From: an uncultured Bacilli bacterium
GTDB taxonomy: Bacteria; Bacillota_I; Bacilli_A; RF39; UBA660
Length of the DNA: 64,000 bases
Assembly (NCBI GenBank): GCA_958413985.1
Contig: CATYVZ010000003.1
Span: 18,751 to 82,750, forward strand
Reading direction: 5' to 3'
Both the position numbers and the translations under genes were made by a program. The notes beneath the pieces were generated by a model. The model ran no database searches. It was given only the letters and a program-made list of their open reading frames with translations, and was not told the origin of the DNA. Below, in pieces: positions 35,825 through 60,115 of this stretch; the first letter of the stretch is position 1; each line of letters starts with the position of its first letter.

Positions 35825-36682
35825 TTATTTACCACTTAATATTTTACTTATAATCTCCTTATATTTGCTTTCATTTATTTGTTTATCTAAAGTATTTGTC
35901 AAATCTTTTATGGCCTTTTCAACTAGTTCTTTTTTGTTAATTAACGATTTATATACTATGTTTAGTTTTTCTTGATTTTCAGTTATATATTTATTATTTG
36001 TATCATAATAAAAATATCTTTTAATAAAGCTTTTATTATCTTTAAACTCATTAATAAAATGACTAATATTTATCAAATTTACATATGTACTCAAATCAAT
36101 AAAATTTAAATTAAATTTACTTTCTTCATTACCTATTTTTTTATTTAAAAAATTCAAATACATGTATTCTATTACTAACATTATGTATTTTAAATTACCT
36201 AATAAATAATTTTTATACTTTATAGTTTCACTCATATATGACAGTAATTCCTTCATACTGGATGGATGAATAATTTTACAAAGGTATTTATAAATTTCAT
36301 TGAAATCTTCTTTTTCAAAATAATCTGTAAAAATTTCTTTACAATTAAATTCTAAGATTGATCTTAAATCTCTTGAAACTGTATCTAATGTTATATTAAG
36401 TTTCTTATCATATGATTTTGCTATTATATAAATAATATTTTCATATAAAGTTCTTAAAATTGTGGCCGCATTTAATAAATCTTGTTTTTCTATAAGTTCA
36501 TTAACTAATCTAAAATCATGAGTAATTTTGATATACAAATTTTTTGACTTATTATATTTGCTTATTTTCTTAAATTCAAAATTATCTATTTCATCCAAAT
36601 ATACATAATTTGCACAGTTTAATATTCTCATACATTTTTTATAATTATTTATTCGTTTTATAAACTGACTTGCTGTTGCCAT
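35825..36682 (-). CDS. Hypothetical protein (285 aa) in the R-M/defense-like locus
   Basis: Lys/Asn-rich, predicted helical. No motif recognised by eye. Co-oriented with the 36839 gene, separated by a 156-bp spacer. Confidence 0.4.
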   Translation of the reverse strand: MATASQFIKRINNYKKCMRILNCANYVYLDEIDNFEFKKISKYNKSKNLYIKITHDFRLVNELIEKQDLLNAATILRTLYENIIYIIAKSYDKKLNITLDTVSRDLRSILEFNCKEIFTDYFEKEDFNEIYKYLCKIIHPSSMKELLSYMSETIKYKNYLLGNLKYIMLVIEYMYLNFLNKKIGNEESKFNLNFIDLSTYVNLINISHFINEFKDNKSFIKRYFYYDTNNKYITENQEKLNIVYKSLINKKELVEKAIKDLTNTLDKQINESKYKEIISKILSGK

Positions 36683-36838
36683 AATATCACCTTTGTAATT
36701 AATTATTATACCATAAAAAAGTCATCACTGACTTTTCTCATCATAATTCCATAACCCAATTTAACAGCAAGTAAAATTTCGCTTTTATTTTTCAGCATTT
36801 ATAATTTCCAAGCGTATCCTATTTTATCATCTTTTTCA

Positions 36839-37696
36839 TTATTCACTATCTATTATATTTGATAATTCAAATCTTTCTCCATATTTTTTTAATATATCCT
36901 CTGCGAATGATAAGAACGAAATATCTTCTAATTCTAAATCAAAGTCATTATCAATTAATCCATCTTTTTTTAGTTCATCAGTTGTATTATATATTACCGG
37001 TTTTTCTTTTGAAAAATCAACTATTAAAAGTGCGCATCTTTCATATTTATACTCATCATCATCTTTATTTAATCTGTTATTAATTGCAGAAAAGAAACTT
37101 ATATATTTTGCTAAATTTGTTTTTCTATTTGAAAAAGATACAATATTATTCTTAGCATCAGACTCATTATATTCATAAACAGGAATTAGATATACCTCAC
37201 CTAAAACAATACTTTTATAAATTGTGTGTAAATTCATAGCTTCTGCAAATGTTCTTTCAAATAGTGTATCGGCATTTTTCGCCAAACTACTAAGCTGACT
37301 TCTTATATTTATTACCAGACAATTAGATGTATATTCAATTCCAAACATGTCTTTTTTATTTTCATGCTTCAAAGGACCCCAATCAACAACGATTTCCTCT
37401 TTTTCAACATTAGAGGGAATTACTGTTACATCCTGATCTTTTTGTTTTAAAAAACCTGTTATTTTGACTTCTGGATTAGAGCGACCCAACGGAGGAAAAA
37501 TATTTCCGGATTTTACTTTATTCCTAACTAATTCTTCTTTTACACATTCGTGCAAATATCCTATTAATCTAGATGATCTTATCAAACTTTCTTTCGCTAA
37601 TGATCCATTACCAAAAATTTTCCCCTCATTTTCTCCTGTGGAAATACATAATTCTATTTCTTTTTTTATTATTGACATACAATTTTCTATATTCAT
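36839..37696 (-). CDS. Hypothetical protein (285 aa), candidate restriction endonuclease partner of the divergent methyltransferase
   Basis: Divergently transcribed from the MTase gene across a 117-bp shared upstream region. Its size is typical of Type II REases. No PD-(D/E)XK motif could be assigned by eye. Confidence 0.35.
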   Translation of the reverse strand: MNIENCMSIIKKEIELCISTGENEGKIFGNGSLAKESLIRSSRLIGYLHECVKEELVRNKVKSGNIFPPLGRSNPEVKITGFLKQKDQDVTVIPSNVEKEEIVVDWGPLKHENKKDMFGIEYTSNCLVINIRSQLSSLAKNADTLFERTFAEAMNLHTIYKSIVLGEVYLIPVYEYNESDAKNNIVSFSNRKTNLAKYISFFSAINNRLNKDDDEYKYERCALLIVDFSKEKPVIYNTTDELKKDGLIDNDFDLELEDISFLSFAEDILKKYGERFELSNIIDSE

Positions 37697-37813
37697 AAAA
37701 GCAACCTCTTAATATATTTTAACATTTTTTGTATTTTTTTTAAATTATTTGACAGTTATTTAATAAAAATATCTTTTTTTAATGTATAATTAGTATATAA
37801 GGATGGTGCATAA

Positions 37814-39604
37814 ATGAAAAACAATATTATATCAAAACTTTTACATTCTTACTCTATTGTAGATATAGAAAACGCTGCCATCAAATTATTTTTAAATAAC
37901 AATAATATTTCAGATATAAAAAATAGAATTATTCAAAATAGAATTAATATCGTTAATTCTGATATTTTAGAAACTTTAAAAAATAATTTTAATATTAAAA
38001 CTATTGATTCATTAGACAAATTTTTTGAAAATTTATTTAATGAAAAAGAAAAAACTGAAAACGGTATAGTATTTACTCCAGATTTTATAGCTGATTACAT
38101 TGTTAAAAATACTATTACAAGTTTTAATGAAAATACAAAAATCATTGATCCTTCTTGTGGATGCGGAATATTTTTAATTTCCACCATAAAACATATAAAA
38201 AGTTTAACTAATATTTCAATTAGTAATATTATTAAAAACAATTTATACGGAATAGATTTACAAAAAGAAAATATTGAAAGAGTTAAAGTATTGATATCAT
38301 TATATGCTATCATAAATGATGAAGATAATGAAGAATATAGTTTTAATTTAAAATGCTGTGATAGTTTATTTAGTGACTGGAAAAATATTTTTAAAGTTAA
38401 TAAATTTGACTATATAATTGGAAACCCGCCTTATATTAACAATCATGATCTAAAAGATGAGTATATAAATTTATTAAAAAATAGTTATGAATCAACTCAA
38501 GAAGGCACTTTCAACATTTTCTATGTTTTTATTGAAAAAAGCTCAATAAATTTATCAGATACAGGAAAAATTGGATATATTATTCCAAATAATTTTCTTC
38601 ATATTAAATCTGCCAAAAAATTAAGACAATACATAAAAAATAATAATTTATTAAATACTATCATTGATTTTAAAGATAATACTGTGTTTTCTCCTGTTTT
38701 AACATATAACTCTATTGTTTTCTTAACTAAAAATAATACAACAATTAAATATGCTCAAGTAAAGAAAACTAAAAACATTAATAACATCTTAGAAAATATT
38801 AATTTCAAAACAAAAAAAATTGATGAATTAGATGATGATTGTTGGATTTTATCAAATAACAATACAATTAATAACATTAGAAAAATTGAATCATATAATA
38901 AAATTGATTCGTTTATAAAAACTGGTATTGCAACTTTAAGAGATAAGTTATTTATATTAGACGGATATGATGAAGACAAAAAATTATATTTTAAAAGTAT
39001 TGATAATATTATATATTATATAGAACCAGAGATAACCAAACCATTCATTAAAATTTCTAAATATAAGGCAACTAAAAAAATAGAAAGAATAATTTTTCCA
39101 TATGAAATAAAACATGGCAAATCATCTATTTACGATATAGAAAAATTAAAAAAATTATTTCCATTGTGCTATAAATATTTTGAAGATAATAAAACTTTAA
39201 TAGAAAAAAAAGAAAAAGGTAAAATTATAACTCCTTGGTATATTTATGGTAGAGCGCAGGGATTAAATTTGTTTGATGACAAAATTATTTTTTCTACATT
39301 TAATAGTTTGCCAGAATTTATGGATTGTCCAAATAATGAGGCTCTTTTATCAAATGGTTATTGTATAACTAATTTTCCATATAATAAAATGTTATTATTA
39401 AAAATACTAAATTCTAAAGTTATGAAATATTATATAGAAAATACAAGTTATAGTATTTCTGGTAATTATAAATGTTTCCAGAAAAAATATATTAAAAACT
39501 TCTCTATACCTAATATAGATAAAAATATAGAAATGGAGATTTTACAATTAAATGGTAAAAAATTAGATGAATATCTATTTAATTTATACAAATTAGATGA
39601 ATAA
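37814..39604 (+). CDS. N6-adenine-specific DNA methyltransferase (gamma class: motif I before NPPY, large C-terminal target-recognition region)
   Basis: Motif I IIDPSCGCGIFL and motif IV YIIGNPPYI. 596 aa with a single catalytic domain. Confidence 0.75.
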   Translation: MKNNIISKLLHSYSIVDIENAAIKLFLNNNNISDIKNRIIQNRINIVNSDILETLKNNFNIKTIDSLDKFFENLFNEKEKTENGIVFTPDFIADYIVKNTITSFNENTKIIDPSCGCGIFLISTIKHIKSLTNISISNIIKNNLYGIDLQKENIERVKVLISLYAIINDEDNEEYSFNLKCCDSLFSDWKNIFKVNKFDYIIGNPPYINNHDLKDEYINLLKNSYESTQEGTFNIFYVFIEKSSINLSDTGKIGYIIPNNFLHIKSAKKLRQYIKNNNLLNTIIDFKDNTVFSPVLTYNSIVFLTKNNTTIKYAQVKKTKNINNILENINFKTKKIDELDDDCWILSNNNTINNIRKIESYNKIDSFIKTGIATLRDKLFILDGYDEDKKLYFKSIDNIIYYIEPEITKPFIKISKYKATKKIERIIFPYEIKHGKSSIYDIEKLKKLFPLCYKYFEDNKTLIEKKEKGKIITPWYIYGRAQGLNLFDDKIIFSTFNSLPEFMDCPNNEALLSNGYCITNFPYNKMLLLKILNSKVMKYYIENTSYSISGNYKCFQKKYIKNFSIPNIDKNIEMEILQLNGKKLDEYLFNLYKLDE

Positions 39605-40021
39605 AATCATCTTTTTTTCTTGACCTTTATTTTAAGTGGTTAACACAACAACCGGATGTTACATATGATTAGAAAAAATACAGATGAAGATATTTCTGAT
39701 TCTATACACTATATTAAATATTCTATTTTTGAATTCTATGACAATTCCTATTTGAACATTATTTTCCTCATCCACAATATCACATTCTTTGTTACCGCTT
39801 GTTCCATAGAAAAATTCTACTAATTAGTTTTTCTTTTTTAAAATAGTAATTCTACATCACTAAATCCATCAGGTTTTTGATTTGATAATTTTAAAAAATC
39901 TAATTCAACTTTACTAATAGAATTATATCATTTTTTATCGAAAAAAAATTAGCAATTTCAACTGAATTTATAAAATTCATTCCCAACTTGTTCACAAAAC
40001 CTTATAAATACTAGCTATACA

Positions 40022-47966: not shown

Positions 47967-48719
47967 TTAATTTATAGGTAAAGCGATCGATGGTGAATTT
48001 TGATTTAAACCATTCAAATAATAACTTGGAACATTCCCTTGAATAAGCTTTAAAGCCACGGGAACTGTGGTGTTTATACTAGTTTTATCAGTGATGAACG
48101 GTAATATTATTTGAAAAGATAAGTCTAAAACTACATTGACCTCAATTAATGCATTGTTGATACCATAATCGGTTACCGTTGTATTTACATAACTGACAAT
48201 ATCGCCAACCAAACTAAAACGAACGGGAACTTTAGGACCAACATTTGCTAAAAAAGAATTACCAAATATAACTCCACTTGGTATTTCATAAATAATACCT
48301 TGCTTTAATTTGCTTTGATTATAATCCATTAAAGCATTAGTGGTCAAATTTAGTAATTCTATTTTTCCTTGCTCCAAATATTTTAAGTTACTTTGAATTA
48401 AAGCTGTTGTTTCAGTCAATATTTTGTTAACTGTTATCGGATTAAAATCGATTGATTTTATTTCATCTTCTTCTTTTGTAATGATAAACAATTCCTCGAT
48501 ATCGATATTTTCGGTTATATTTTTATTAATAGCATCGTTTATAACAATACTGACCAATTTTCGTGATTCCATCTCAGCATATTCTAATAAAACAGGATTA
48601 GCTTTTAAACTGATAAATTTTAAGGATAAAAATATAAGGATAACAAAGATAAATATAATCAAAATTAATTTATTTATCTTTCTTTGCTTTTTTTTTAATT
48701 TTATTCGTCTTCGCATCAT
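47967..48719 (-). CDS. Sporulation protein YunB-like
   Basis: 250 aa. Basic N-terminus and a single TM segment, the size and topology of YunB. Confidence 0.45.
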   Translation of the reverse strand: MMRRRIKLKKKQRKINKLILIIFIFVILIFLSLKFISLKANPVLLEYAEMESRKLVSIVINDAINKNITENIDIEELFIITKEEDEIKSIDFNPITVNKILTETTALIQSNLKYLEQGKIELLNLTTNALMDYNQSKLKQGIIYEIPSGVIFGNSFLANVGPKVPVRFSLVGDIVSYVNTTVTDYGINNALIEVNVVLDLSFQIILPFITDKTSINTTVPVALKLIQGNVPSYYLNGLNQNSPSIALPIN

Positions 48720-48769: not shown

Positions 48770-49222
48770 GTGGTGAATAACATGATCGAAAAAATTATGA
48801 GTAAAAATTTAATAGTTTTAGATGTGGATAATAGCATTTATGATGTTGCTAAGACTATGAAAGAAAAAGATATAGGTTTTATTCCTATAAGTCAAGGTAA
48901 TAAAATTATTGGTGTATTAACTGATCGTGATATTGTAACTAGAATTTTAGCAAATAAAGATGACAAAATAGCTGGTTATTTATCCATAGATCCTATTAAA
49001 ATTTCTTATGATGCATCCATTGAAGAAGCTTTGGAAAAAATGAAGGAACATAAGATTAAAAGATTGTTAGTAGAAAAGAATAAAAAACTAATTGGTATTT
49101 TATCGTTATCTGATTTAATTAATCAAGATAATAAAAATTTGCTTGAAACTATACAAAATATATATGAAATCAATCGAAATACTGATTATTATAATACTAA
49201 AATAGATGAATTTGAATTATAA
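48770..49222 (+). CDS. CBS-domain pair protein
   Basis: Two CBS repeats (GFIPISQGNKIIGVLTDRDIV; RLLVEKNKKLIGILSLSDLI). Confidence 0.65.
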   Translation: MVNNMIEKIMSKNLIVLDVDNSIYDVAKTMKEKDIGFIPISQGNKIIGVLTDRDIVTRILANKDDKIAGYLSIDPIKISYDASIEEALEKMKEHKIKRLLVEKNKKLIGILSLSDLINQDNKNLLETIQNIYEINRNTDYYNTKIDEFEL

Positions 49223-49278
49223 AAACTGCAAATAAACTTTAGTTAAGACAAATAGTTAAATACTTATTTGTTTTTTTA

Positions 49279-50754
49279 TTATCCTATTCTAAAAGCTGGA
49301 GCTACGCCTAAAGTATTAGCAAGACCATAATAGCCCGCTTTACCATAAAGATCGACATAGTAAAAATAGCGATAATCGCCAACGTAAGGCGTACGTAACC
49401 ACCAATCTGATCTACTTCCTTGAAATTTCTTTTGTGATTCACCATTATTACTAGCTGAAGTTGTGTTGTTATTATTATAGTAATCTAATTGTCTTGTTAA
49501 TGCTTCGGCTGTATCAATTAACCAATTAGTTGGTTCCGGAATATAGGCTGATATAGATATTCCAAATAATTCTGTGGGAGATAATAAATATAATTTATCT
49601 GTTGAGGTAAAATTGGAACTATCACCTGGGCCATAACCTGATACTGTATAAGTATCTATTATAACACTTCTTAAATCACTTGGTAAAGCATTATATATAT
49701 CTTCATTCACAAAACTATATATCTCACTTCCTGGCCAACCTCTTCCAGTAGTATCAGTTGAATCCACGTTATGTTCAGTTATAATATCAACAAATTCTAC
49801 TACAAAACCACACGCTGTTTGTGAAAATCCTTCACTATTACATTCTTCTGGAGTTGACATATTCACTATTCTTACTGTAAAAGTCTGTTCACTTCCATTA
49901 GTATATCCTTCTACTGTTACCTCTTTAGTATCTCCTACATTATATACACTTGTATTACCATCTTTAATCGCTTGAGCAATTATCTCCCATGAATCTTTAG
50001 CAAACGATACTGGTTTTAGTTCAGCATATGTTATTAATATGTTATCAGTTACATTTGAAAGATATAAACTATATTGGTCAAATGTATAACTATCTTGATC
50101 AAGGATCAAATCACCAACTTTAACTTCAACATTAGGAATTAATTCTATAAAGTTTATAGTTAAATCCCCGCCACTTATAACTTGTTTAGGATAACCAGGG
50201 TCTGTTGGAAAATCTGCATAAGTGACTGTATAAAATGATCGAAAATCAAAATCTAAATTTAAGGCATAAGTCGTATTGCTGGCATTATAGCCACCATCTT
50301 TATATTTTATCGTTATATAAAATTCTTTTTTTATTCCTAAACTACATTGATTGTTATTGCATAGTTTATCTTGTAAAGTGTAACCACTAAGCTCATATTC
50401 GAGGTTACTTGGTAAATTATTTATAGCAAAAATTCCCATTTCGACATTGCCAAAATTTGTTACATCTACTTTATAGGTAATTGTAGAGTCACTATTAGGC
50501 AAGTTAACTCCCATCGAAATATTAGAAACATTATATTCTTCATATGAAGATATCGCAGCATTAGTATAAGAATCAACCGAGATACCTGTGACTCTTATAT
50601 AAGCTTCTATTCTTACATCAACTGCAATTCCACCAATATTTAAAGTTGTACCAAAAGCAGAATAAGCAATACTAAGTAAAACAACAAAAATAGCGACTAT
50701 GATTGGTATAGTTTGAATATTAAACAGTCTTTGGTATAAAATGCCCCCCCCCAT
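49279..50754 (-). CDS. Secreted/surface protein with poly-G tract at the 5' end and a C-terminal WWLRxPY...GVAPAFRI module
   Basis: ORF MGGGILYQRLFNIQTIPIIVAIFVVLLSIAYSAF is a signal anchor. Removing one G from the G9 tract fuses an upstream ATG, giving MLKKRSKLANSTHGGGILYQ... Confidence 0.55.
   Translation of the reverse strand: MGGGILYQRLFNIQTIPIIVAIFVVLLSIAYSAFGTTLNIGGIAVDVRIEAYIRVTGISVDSYTNAAISSYEEYNVSNISMGVNLPNSDSTITYKVDVTNFGNVEMGIFAINNLPSNLEYELSGYTLQDKLCNNNQCSLGIKKEFYITIKYKDGGYNASNTTYALNLDFDFRSFYTVTYADFPTDPGYPKQVISGGDLTINFIELIPNVEVKVGDLILDQDSYTFDQYSLYLSNVTDNILITYAELKPVSFAKDSWEIIAQAIKDGNTSVYNVGDTKEVTVEGYTNGSEQTFTVRIVNMSTPEECNSEGFSQTACGFVVEFVDIITEHNVDSTDTTGRGWPGSEIYSFVNEDIYNALPSDLRSVIIDTYTVSGYGPGDSSNFTSTDKLYLLSPTELFGISISAYIPEPTNWLIDTAEALTRQLDYYNNNNTTSASNNGESQKKFQGSRSDWWLRTPYVGDYRYFYYVDLYGKAGYYGLANTLGVAPAFRIG
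50744..50752. repeat. Homopolymeric C9 (G9 on the coding strand) tract at the start codon of the surface-protein gene
   Basis: Plus strand atgCCCCCCCCCatg. The longest G/C homopolymer seen in a ~25% GC window. Confidence 0.9.
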
Positions 50755-50869
50755 GTGTGCTATTTGCTAACTTACTTCTTTTTTTTAACATCTAACTACG
50801 CCTACTTTCTATATTTTTATTATATATTATTTATCTATCAAAAGCAATATTTTATTTATAAATAAAAAA

Positions 50870-51415
50870 CTACAAATAAATTGTAGTTTTTGAAATTGGT
50901 TCTTCATCGTCGCAATATCCTTGCATTAAAACAACTTCATTATTAGCTAAACTTTGTTTCACATCGATAACTCTTTGATTTCTAGAACCTTTAAATTTTA
51001 AATCTAAACTTCTTTGTTGTAAAATAAATCTACCATCGACTAAAACGTCGATATAACTTAAAAATTCTAAAACCAAATTATCATTTAACTTTAATAGTTG
51101 TTCAAAAGTGTATCCTGTATAACACCAAACATTTAAGTTTTGTTCCTTGCAGTACTTGGCTATTTCTAAACAGGGCTCAACTTGAAAAAATGGATCGCCA
51201 CCGGAAAAAGTTATTCCATCTTGGCCTTGTAAATCAGATATTGTCTTTTTTACACTTTCAACATCTTCTAAAAAGCCACCTTGGAAGTCCCACGTTCCTT
51301 GATTATGACAGCCGATGCAATGGTGAGAACAACCTTGCGTCCAAATGACTGTTCTAATTCCCTCACCATCGACAATACTGTCAAATTGAAGGGGCGCAGC
51401 CAATCTTATTTGCAT
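50870..51415 (-). CDS. nrdG: Anaerobic ribonucleoside-triphosphate reductase activating protein (radical SAM)
   Basis: CSHHCIGCHN cluster-binding CxxxCxxC motif. 181 aa. Its start overlaps the stop of the upstream micro-ORF (TAATG). Confidence 0.85.
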   Translation of the reverse strand: MQIRLAAPLQFDSIVDGEGIRTVIWTQGCSHHCIGCHNQGTWDFQGGFLEDVESVKKTISDLQGQDGITFSGGDPFFQVEPCLEIAKYCKEQNLNVWCYTGYTFEQLLKLNDNLVLEFLSYIDVLVDGRFILQQRSLDLKFKGSRNQRVIDVKQSLANNEVVLMQGYCDDEEPISKTTIYL

Positions 51416-58477: not shown

Positions 58478-60115
58478 TTATTGTAATTCGTATGGGGAAT
58501 TAGCAGTTCCTTTACCAGATGTGAATATCAATCCTGATTTTATAAATATAACAGGACGAACTCCATAACTATTAGTTAGGGAAGCTGAACTCATTGAACC
58601 TGTCTGATTAATATATAATGCATAAGAAGTAGTAGAGCGGTTCATCGTCCAATAATAATTTGAAACAGTTGGATTTTCAATCGTATTGACATCGACAAAT
58701 GTCTTACTACTAGATGTCGATAAATCAATATCATTTCCTGAAAACATCTCGCCTATTGTCGGTAAACCAATAGCATTATAAAGTGCCTCGTCTTGAACAA
58801 CTGTGTAACTTGATGAAGTTGATGGATAATCACCTATATAAAATGCATGATTACTACTTATATGACGATAATAAATCGGAATATTATTGGCAAAGGTATC
58901 AACTGCACTAATTATCGTAGAATTATAACCTATTGTTGCTGAACTTCCATACTGACTAGTAGTTGGCAGTAAACCATTTAAAACTATTTTAATACTATCA
59001 TCATATTTGCCTACTACCCTAAATGTACATACATTATCACTACCACACGCATTATCAGTACCTCGATATTGAATATTAATGTATTCTCCTACTTGAACAT
59101 CACTTGTACCTGTTGATTTCGTTTCAGTATAATAGTTAGATGATAAACTACCGGTACCCCCAACAACTACTAAATCTGAAATCTTTATAACAGGGCGCAC
59201 TCCATATCTCATTGTTGTAGGAGCATAAGTAAGAGAAGTTAAAACAACTCTAATATAAGAAGAACTATACCTATTTCCCAACCACCAATAATCACCAATA
59301 TCTAAATAAGAGGATATCCCACCAGCTCTTGTAAATTGATCATTATCTAATAAACCAACTTTTTGAGTAGTGGTGATTTCGTCAACATCAGTATATATTC
59401 CAATGTTGAAGTCATTATTTACTATATTATTTTGAATTCGACTGTCTAAACTATTGTAAAAATAATCATTTAACCAACTATTGATAAAACTATTGGTATA
59501 TGTTTGTTCAGTTGTCCAAATAGAATTGTTAGCATAAATTGTTGTCAGTGGTTGAGCGTTAATTAACGTTAAGGTGTTTTCACTTGTATCAAATTCAACT
59601 ACTCGCCACTGATGTCCACCATACCATAGATAATTGTTACTTACCTCATCATTAGTTCCTTTAAAATAATATATATTTGAATTAGTACTATCTTCTAACA
59701 ATCCTGTTGTATTACTAGAATCATATTGCTCTAATAGTAAACCAATCAACGTTTTTGAAGTCGTCAATTCATAACTAAAAGTCCAATCTTCATTTCTAGT
59801 AATTTTAACAGCATCATCACTACTAAAACTAAGATTAGTATTAGGATTTAAAGTGTTGATATCAATATAATTTTGACCGATCAAATCACGGATAATATTT
59901 ACATAAGTAAAACCACCAACCGTATCTAAGCTATTATCATAATTAGCCATAATATAATTTTCAGTCGCCATATAAATATTGTTTAAAGCTTCTTGACTTT
60001 TATTTTCTTCAGTTTTTTTTGTCATATCTGTTAAAGATGGCAAAGCAATTAAAATCATAATTGCCAGTATAACTAGTATCGCTAGCAATTCAACCAACGT
60101 AAAACCGCGCTTCAT
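58478..60115 (-). CDS. Large prepilin-type (type IV pilin/pseudopilin leader) secreted protein with two C-terminal YGVRPVI-ending modules
   Basis: N-terminal MKRGFTLVELLAILVILAIMILIAL, i.e. G|FTLVE, the prepilin peptidase cleavage/methylation motif. 545 aa with internal and C-terminal YWWLGNRY...YGVRPVI modules. Located between gap and pgk. Confidence 0.6.
   Translation of the reverse strand: MKRGFTLVELLAILVILAIMILIALPSLTDMTKKTEENKSQEALNNIYMATENYIMANYDNSLDTVGGFTYVNIIRDLIGQNYIDINTLNPNTNLSFSSDDAVKITRNEDWTFSYELTTSKTLIGLLLEQYDSSNTTGLLEDSTNSNIYYFKGTNDEVSNNYLWYGGHQWRVVEFDTSENTLTLINAQPLTTIYANNSIWTTEQTYTNSFINSWLNDYFYNSLDSRIQNNIVNNDFNIGIYTDVDEITTTQKVGLLDNDQFTRAGGISSYLDIGDYWWLGNRYSSSYIRVVLTSLTYAPTTMRYGVRPVIKISDLVVVGGTGSLSSNYYTETKSTGTSDVQVGEYINIQYRGTDNACGSDNVCTFRVVGKYDDSIKIVLNGLLPTTSQYGSSATIGYNSTIISAVDTFANNIPIYYRHISSNHAFYIGDYPSTSSSYTVVQDEALYNAIGLPTIGEMFSGNDIDLSTSSSKTFVDVNTIENPTVSNYYWTMNRSTTSYALYINQTGSMSSASLTNSYGVRPVIFIKSGLIFTSGKGTANSPYELQ

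Follow-up and report, generated by a model that had tools for sequence, protein, structure and literature searches.

How does a gene stay intact and constrained when, in the only state observed, the start codon led by its Shine-Dalgarno (SD) sequence is out of phase with the gene body? The question is raised by a run of nine G residues (G9) at the 5′ end of a gene for a predicted surface protein, on the minus strand of a 64,000-nucleotide stretch from an uncultured human-gut Bacilli bacterium (assembly GCA_958413985.1, contig CATYVZ010000003.1, positions 18,751 to 82,750), which we call the window and whose numbering is used throughout. A preliminary description of this DNA had proposed the run as a slipped-strand phase-variation switch at the translation start of a secreted protein. 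Here we describe the tract, the frames that it sets, the ancestral start codon and the asymmetry in SD sequences, the recurrence of such tracts in relatives and the constancy of the window tract at nine G residues. The locus is probably a poly-G switch of a known kind, with all assemblies in the predicted low or off state, although switching itself is unproven. The mechanism proposed is the textbook one; any novelty lies in its host group and protein family and in the occurrence of coding as well as promoter poly-G tracts within that single family.

Results

A poly-G tract unexplained by composition or codon usage

On the minus strand the run stands in the context ...AGCACAC ATG GGGGGGGG C ATTTT..., and the codons from 50791 to 50715 begin ATG TTA AAA AAA AGA, pass through AGC ACA CAT GGG GGG GGG CAT TTT and end ACT GTT TAA. 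It is the sole G/C run longer than six nucleotides in the window, where the next longest is a single C6 (21668-21673) and no second tract was found, and dinucleotide-preserving shuffles predict only 0.01 runs of such length, placing the observation about 100-fold above chance. GGG is the rarest glycine codon of the window (7.5% of glycine codons in 48 long open reading frames, ORFs), and the other Gly-Gly-Gly tripeptides encoded there (n = 8) are mostly spelled with GGT, with one GGG codon among them all, so codon usage does not account for the run. The tract is real and a by-product of neither composition nor codon usage. The preliminary description was therefore right to call it an outlier in GC-poor DNA, but its figure of about 25% GC has to be corrected to 28.4%. 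An origin in NextSeq-type poly-G read artefacts was rejected because the length is fixed and the run is contig-internal and homologous across species, and a G-quadruplex was rejected because there is a single G run only. The longest A/T runs of the window are an A14 (62922-62935), which lies between the divergent genes 61222-62883 (minus) and 63001-63567 (plus), and an A9 (48688-48696), which lies within codons 8-11 of yunB.

Tract length sets which of two start codons is in phase with the gene

Two ATG codons precede the gene body, one upstream at 50791 and one fused to the tract at 50754. When the tract was edited in silico from G6 to G12, the upstream ATG yielded a product of 503 or 504 aa (MLKKRSKLANSTHGGGILYQRLFNIQTIPII...) at G8 or G11, and the tract-fused ATG yielded 18 or 19 aa. 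At G6, G9 and G12 the tract-fused ATG opens the gene body (490, 491 and 492 aa) and the upstream ATG gives 22, 23 and 24 aa; at the G9 of the window, these products are the 491-aa MGGGILYQ... and the 23-aa MLKKRSKLANSTHGGGHFIPKTV. At G7 and G10 the gene body is in phase with neither, the upstream ATG giving 30 or 31 aa and the tract-fused ATG 10 or 11 aa. The start codons thus occupy two of the three frames, ATG 50791 being in frame at G8 and G11 and ATG 50754 at G6, G9 and G12, and the frame arithmetic offered earlier for G8, G9 and G10 is borne out. Counted from the upstream ATG, the tract occupies codons 14-16, 39 nt downstream of that start and within the signal-peptide n-region, so that at G8 the upstream segment supplies the first 16 codons of the 503-aa protein. 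The peptide LANSTHGGGHFIPK would be diagnostic of the upstream-ORF product and LANSTHGGGILYQR of the long form, made from a G8 allele or by a +1 slip.

The predicted duplex with the anti-SD sequence is -9.3 kcal/mol for the upstream ATG versus -0.3 kcal/mol for the tract-fused ATG; the median was -7.1 kcal/mol for 43 reference genes and -1.8 kcal/mol for random positions, which makes the tract-fused value weaker than the random-position median. With an SD sequence at 50791 and none at the fused ATG, ribosomes should load at 50791 whatever the tract length. In addition, the N-termini of paralogues, MKKVANSKAGRGRLLTSKLFNIHTIPII (P0022, P0136) and MKKVANSKNKGHLLSKKLFNVRT (P0133, P0134), align residue for residue with the G8 reading, and the paralogue DNA has the same promoter, SD and ATG layout, the promoter equivalence having been drawn from the upstream regions of two relatives (L001 and L005). 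This alignment identifies the upstream ATG as the ancestral start, and the earlier claim that G8 places the whole protein, with a basic N-terminus, in a single frame is upheld by the paralogue N-termini and by the occurrence of an SD sequence only at the upstream ATG. The MGGG start of the protein database entry (P0001) is simply the first in-frame ATG, and its choice by gene callers conceals both the ancestral start and the 23-codon upstream ORF.

Poly-G tracts recur at the 5′ ends of related genes

Searches with the N-terminal module of the protein gave 35 loci in species-representative genomes and 52 loci in a metagenome collection; in total, 124 loci were fetched, amounting to about 400 kb. 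By their labels, the metagenome-assembled genomes (MAGs) that hold the related loci are uncultured Bacilli, Tenericutes or Mycoplasma sp. CAG:877; they come from the guts of humans, rabbits and other hosts. Runs of at least seven G residues were present in 18 of the 124 loci, all on the strand of the family gene and at its 5′ end, with none on the opposite strand or elsewhere. Comparison with relatives, which the preliminary description had suggested as a check, therefore revealed the same kind of tract at the 5′ ends of family genes.

At the homologous codons, L005 and L039 also have a G9, and in both it is in frame. L005 belongs to another species and is 68% identical in amino acid sequence (CGT GGG GGG GGG CAT; MIKLANITRGGGHLL...; MIKLANITRGGGHLLKQKLFNVRT...); L039 is about 52% identical (MKLKKTFVRPGGGQSLL...). 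Because G9 occupies the same codons in both despite the rarity of GGG, the uninterrupted homopolymer has been either retained or formed anew over a divergence that is saturating. In other relatives the homologous codons hold G5 or G3AG5; L001 has GGGAGGGGG at the tract position, and L004, L006 and L046 have AGGGGG. The tract-fused start is not conserved, the corresponding codon being GTG in L005, CCG in L039 and CTG in L001. A homologue search with the L005 protein found no close alleles of its in-frame G9 gene.

In seven further family genes from two rabbit-gut MAGs (L007, three in L008, L011, L028 and L033) the tract lies in the promoter, in the arrangement aacTTGACC-G9/G10-ttagTGaTATTAT. 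It is placed between TTGACC and TGnTATTAT, which a consensus scan reads as a -35 element and an extended -10 element with a spacer of 17 nt at G10 and 16 nt at G9. The three tandem paralogues on the L008 contig, which encode proteins of 576, 549 and 562 aa, have tracts of G10, G9 and G9, respectively. Upstream of the L008 promoters lies a conserved element of about 100 nt with a strong divergent TTTACA-17-TATAAT. For the window tract a promoter role was rejected: unlike these tracts, it is outside the -35/-10 spacer, lying past the SD site and 39 nt into the ORF.

The tract is G9 in every assembly of the locus

Further contigs of the locus were found by exact look-up of the neighbouring NrdG protein, and one (L002) is a syntenic contig. 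All 10 of the assemblies compared (the window, L002, L098-L104 and L107) have nine G residues; they come from 10 samples and from MEGAHIT, SPAdes-type and Logan assemblies, and these are consensus counts, in which minority length variants are invisible. The locus is carried by the samples of the runs behind ERZ27244826, ERZ27303498, ERZ27244874, ERZ28616671, ERZ28615161, ERZ27242338, ERZ19649520 and ERZ27244781 and by ERR11569659 and ERR11456728. Because nine assemblies besides the window, from other samples and assemblers, share the tract, it did not arise as an isolated error of assembly. Within the gene, L002 and the window disagree at 54 of 1473 nt (3.7%), with a synonymous divergence (dS) of 0.093 and a ratio of nonsynonymous to synonymous divergence (dN/dS) of 0.25, from which the ORF is judged to be under purifying selection. 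L103 (1446-2960) shares the 5′ end and G9 of the window and continues, from about 500 nt onward, as a different, longer, P0002-like allele; the seven remaining contigs show no difference from the window in the part that they cover. At the consensus level the tract is thus invariant in length, even in the 3.7%-divergent strain, which is the first half of the outcome that the preliminary description had named as refuting its proposal.

A third allele, on a Logan contig (L105, 1649-1771), ends inside the tract after five G residues. Its upstream ORF, MLKKKNKLANSTHG, differs from that of the window by 4 nt, all A/G transitions, two of them synonymous and two conservative (R to K and S to N), such that the frame and the basic residues are kept. 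Exact-flank pattern scans of genome and metagenome contigs found no allele in which the tract had another length. Neither P0001 nor the adjacent CBS protein had a match on exact look-up, and look-up of the downstream DUF4015 protein gave eight contigs, all ending in the 3′ part of the gene and none reaching the tract. On another contig (L003, 1636-3093) the gene body is that of the window, and the first approximately 75 codons, together with an upstream DUF5305 gene, come from paralogue P0005; this could reflect real recombination between paralogues or a chimeric assembly.

The gene encodes a putative surface protein of a modular family

The DUF6273 match of the product scores above the Pfam gathering threshold and has the corresponding fold. 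An AlphaFold2 model built with 67 homologues (mean predicted local distance difference test score 83) has a helix (residues 13-34) followed by a beta-sandwich modelled with very high confidence (53-180), then a small beta domain and, last, DUF6273. This domain has been reported to be C-type-lectin-like and, in receptor-binding proteins of phages, to be targeted by diversity-generating retroelements (PMC10743442). Based on this model, an exported, ligand-binding surface protein is a reasonable description of the product, in keeping with the secreted or surface location originally assigned to it from its hydrophobic helix; the sandwich and the lectin-like domain add to that assignment. The N-terminus had no match among NCBIfam signal-peptide models. 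The window also encodes a second DUF6273 protein (58478-60115, minus strand, 545 aa) with the prepilin-type N-terminus MKRGFTLVELL, and many DUF6273 homologues have PF07963, the prepilin N-methylation motif.

The anchor and sandwich form an N-terminal module common to a large family in uncultured gut Bacilli, the C-termini of which vary among DUF6273, DUF285/leucine-rich repeats, Listeria-Bacteroides repeats and dockerin; no paralogue with this module occurs in the 64-kb window. Paralogues with a shorter leader share an operon with genes for an archaeal-type signal peptidase I (TIGR02228, 84 bits) and DUF5305, which precede them, as in L040-L042 (e.g. L041, 696-3699); this suggests a dedicated processing route. 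Neither a SipW-type peptidase nor a DUF5305 gene was present in the window. In nine contigs, a short-leader family gene has ATT in place of ATG and is split by a 1-nt deletion (P0139).

The gene is an accessory cassette

The gene occupies a cassette of about 1.64 kb with an imperfect copy of the nrdG terminator hairpin at each end (49221-50891). In L111, whose flanks have 99% identity to those of the window, the CBS gene comes directly after nrdG, with one hairpin and no surface-protein gene (2170-2250), and the gene is also missing from a sister species at 86% identity. These comparisons mark the gene as an accessory cassette, which some strains of the species have and others lack. Contigs often end within the gene, whichever side they approach it from, as expected of a repeated, variable family.

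The other genes of the window, including polC, gerA, yunB, recG and nrdDG, fit a spore-forming member of the Bacilli. Scans of the window for Rfam families and tRNA genes gave no hits. A patch of low GC (21-22%, 36000-40000) contains an Eco57I/MmeI-type methylase gene (37814-39604), and a large serine recombinase is encoded at 8447-10006; the two are possible mobile or defence islands. Features of the locus are collected in Table 1.

Table 1. Positions of the features discussed in the text; rows without a locus name refer to the window.
Feature	Position	Strand	Remarks
G9 homopolymer (C9 on the plus strand)	50744..50752	-	Its first G completes the tract-fused ATG (50754-50752)
Upstream start ATG (50791-50789) and 23-codon ORF MLKKRSKLANSTHGGGHFIPKTV at G9	50720..50791	-	Stop TAA 50722-50720; homologous to paralogue N-termini
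Shine-Dalgarno-like GAAAGTAGG for the upstream ATG	50801..50809	-	From anti-SD duplex energy; aligns with GAAGGTAAG in paralogues
Promoter-like TTGATA-17-AAAAAT	50813..50841	-	Consensus match only; position-equivalent to paralogue TTGACA-17-TAAAAT
Main ORF at G9, 491 aa from the SD-less tract-fused ATG (50754-50752)	49279..50754	-	Identical to P0001
Hydrophobic helix, residues 13-34 of the 491-aa form; putative signal anchor or signal peptide	50653..50718	-	Ends in the family motif LSIAYSAF
DUF6273 domain (PF19789), C-type-lectin-like fold, residues 327-490	49285..49776	-	Pfam
nrdG terminator-like hairpin AAAAACTACAATTTATTTGTAGTTTTT	50865..50891	-	Left cassette boundary
Second, imperfect hairpin copy ACTAAAGTTTATTTGCAGTTTTT	49221..49243	-	Right cassette boundary
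Promoter tracts of relatives	L008 194-222, 2183-2210, 4087-4114; L007 111-120; L011, L028, L033 2948-2956

Discussion

We propose that G9 acts as a hypermutable simple-sequence repeat in the first codons of the gene, the length of which would set the start codon that is in phase with the gene body. Ribosomes would load at the SD-led ATG 50791. At G8 (or G11) they would read the run as Gly-Gly-Gly and proceed into the 503-aa precursor, the state of full expression. At G9 the same start would yield the 23-residue peptide, and the gene body would be in phase only with the SD-less ATG at the edge of the run, so that expression would be low, leaky or off; at G10 (or G7) nothing would be in phase and the gene would be off. 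Slipped-strand mispairing at replication would move a lineage between these states. Length change at a useful rate, and the level of expression in each state, are what we infer. That the locus is a genuine three-state contingency switch, with the low or off state predominant in the gut and the ON state (G8) a minority or transiently selected, is in our estimation about an even prospect.

In common with contingency loci, the tract is uninterrupted and reaches the length of 7-8 bases or more that permits slippage, a change of one unit re-phases the gene and the product has a predicted surface function. The original proposal of a phase-variation switch is thus sustained by the tract, its placement, the ancestral G8 frame and the tracts of relatives, but not by the length of the run, which is the same in all 10 assemblies of the locus. 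Several observations weigh against the three-state switch. No G8 or G10 consensus was found among the 10 assemblies, so that the predicted ON state has never been observed for the window gene, and the length difference between strains that marks a contingency locus is missing from a set of mostly near-identical strains. Eight of the 10 have near-identical flanks and offer few evolutionary replicates, yet they reveal no short-term flips between hosts. Most of the family lacks a tract, including all 52 loci from the metagenome collection, which have no run of at least seven. Furthermore, mutS and mutL, which would bear on a deficiency in mismatch repair, are neither seen nor excluded within the 64-kb window. 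On the whole, the consensus data lean mildly against frequent flips at the population level.

The constancy of the run also favours the main rival explanation, which we consider unlikely but deserving of serious weight: that the tract is a relic, frozen at G9 and functional, with the protein made constitutively from the tract-fused ATG (MGGGILYQ...), a start that might be helped by translational coupling or re-initiation from the overlapping 23-codon ORF, whose stop lies about 32 nt downstream of it. G9 is retained even in the strain at dS 0.09, it exactly phases an ATG with an intact, constrained 491-codon ORF, and the shorter N-terminus retains the hydrophobic helix; the still shorter N-terminus of some paralogues (MKKLFNVRNIPII...) indicates that a short leader can work, and a second start of lower strength has a precedent in licA of Haemophilus influenzae, whose start codons occupy two of the three frames (PMC2212159). 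However, the fused ATG lacks an SD sequence in a genome whose genes typically have one, it lies inside a translated ORF and it is not conserved in relatives, and nine consecutive G residues are by nature unstable, irrespective of what the run does at present. A sequencing or assembly artefact that added a G, or a recent frameshift that left a pseudogene in the window clone, would account for the out-of-frame SD-led start, and homopolymers are error-prone in some sequencing technologies; the frequent breaks of assemblies inside the gene might be read in the same way. These breaks, however, fall hundreds of bases downstream of the tract, where paralogues are alike, and the recovery of G9 by three kinds of assembly, together with a 491-codon frame that is open in strains 3.7% apart at a dN/dS of 0.25, makes such an origin very improbable.

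Alternatively, the DNA may stay at G9 and the protein identical to that of G8 may be made at a set low rate by recoding, either through a +1 ribosomal slip on GGG-GGG-GGG or through RNA polymerase slippage that yields G8 transcripts. An out-of-frame state that is fixed in all assemblies is what programmed frameshift genes display. Wherever in the run tRNA-Gly slipped by +1, the outcome would be exactly ...STHGGGILYQ..., as it would be with a transcript that lacked one G; re-pairing would be perfect, and the basic upstream segment is maintained in frame with conservative changes in the third allele (L105). The rarity of GGG is the only candidate stimulator, however: folding of the mRNA around the tract is no better than that of shuffled sequences (z 0.64), neither a stop codon nor an internal SD sequence flanks the run, and L005 and L039 read the same G9 in frame without recoding. 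Efficient transcriptional slippage, moreover, is documented mainly for A/T runs. We therefore regard recoding as doubtful, and assign a similarly low probability to the broader proposition that all strains hold the SD-led start one base out of phase because the locus is a fixed recoding or dual-start device, and not a DNA-level switch. The routes open to such a device would be the +1 slip, polymerase slippage or a run-built start fed by the overlapping upstream ORF. If this were true, it would be unusual for a poly-G run to act as a recoding site in a family in which such a run otherwise forms a promoter spacer.

If, instead, the tract does switch, contingency-locus biology, known so far mainly from pathogens such as Campylobacter, Neisseria, Haemophilus and the mycoplasmas, would extend to uncultured Bacilli with small genomes that are common commensals of the human gut. 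Its targets would be modular surface proteins in which a conserved anchor and beta-sandwich are joined to a lectin-like, leucine-rich-repeat, dockerin or other C-terminus. Literature searches found no description of simple-sequence-repeat switches in these gut Bacilli or in DUF6273 genes. Existing read sets provide testable loci of both kinds, the coding-tract genes in human-gut strains and the tandem arrays with promoter tracts in rabbit-gut MAGs.

Precedents for both arrangements exist in known systems. In Neisseria meningitidis, porA is switched by a poly-G tract in the promoter spacer. Each gene of the Mycoplasma hyorhinis vlp family has one poly-A tract in its promoter spacer (PMC10502178), and the tandem family genes of the rabbit-gut relatives similarly have their own G9 or G10 between -35 and extended -10 elements. 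The relatives' repeat differs from that of vlp in being G rather than A, and the proteins have a hydrophobic anchor or signal and a beta-sandwich in place of lipoprotein signals; the window tract departs from both vlp and porA in lying inside the coding region. A parallel to the window tract is licA (lic1) of H. influenzae, in which the repeats closely follow alternative initiation codons that fall in two of the three frames, and the number of repeats determines the start, if any, that is in phase with the gene (PMC2212159). The SD-led and tract-fused ATG codons of the window likewise occupy two of three frames, although the licA repeat is a CAAT tetranucleotide and not a homopolymer, both of its classes of start are documented to express, whereas use of the SD-less second start of the window is only inferred, and that second start is formed by the first base of the repeat itself. 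In the contingency genes of Campylobacter jejuni the modal poly-G length is nine, which has been attributed to mutational pattern (PMC3401435). The window locus differs from these genes in that their lengths vary between isolates and within populations, at rates that have been measured; in its host, a spore-forming gut member of the Bacilli instead of a mismatch-repair-deficient epsilonproteobacterium; and in the position of its tract within the n-region of a signal peptide, in the first 16 codons. It nevertheless resembles the poly-G/C genes of C. jejuni (e.g. cj1139 and cj0031) in that the genome is AT-rich, the G/C homopolymer is intragenic and the gain or loss of one base re-phases a surface-related gene, and in the length of its run, nine G residues being the modal length in C. 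jejuni.

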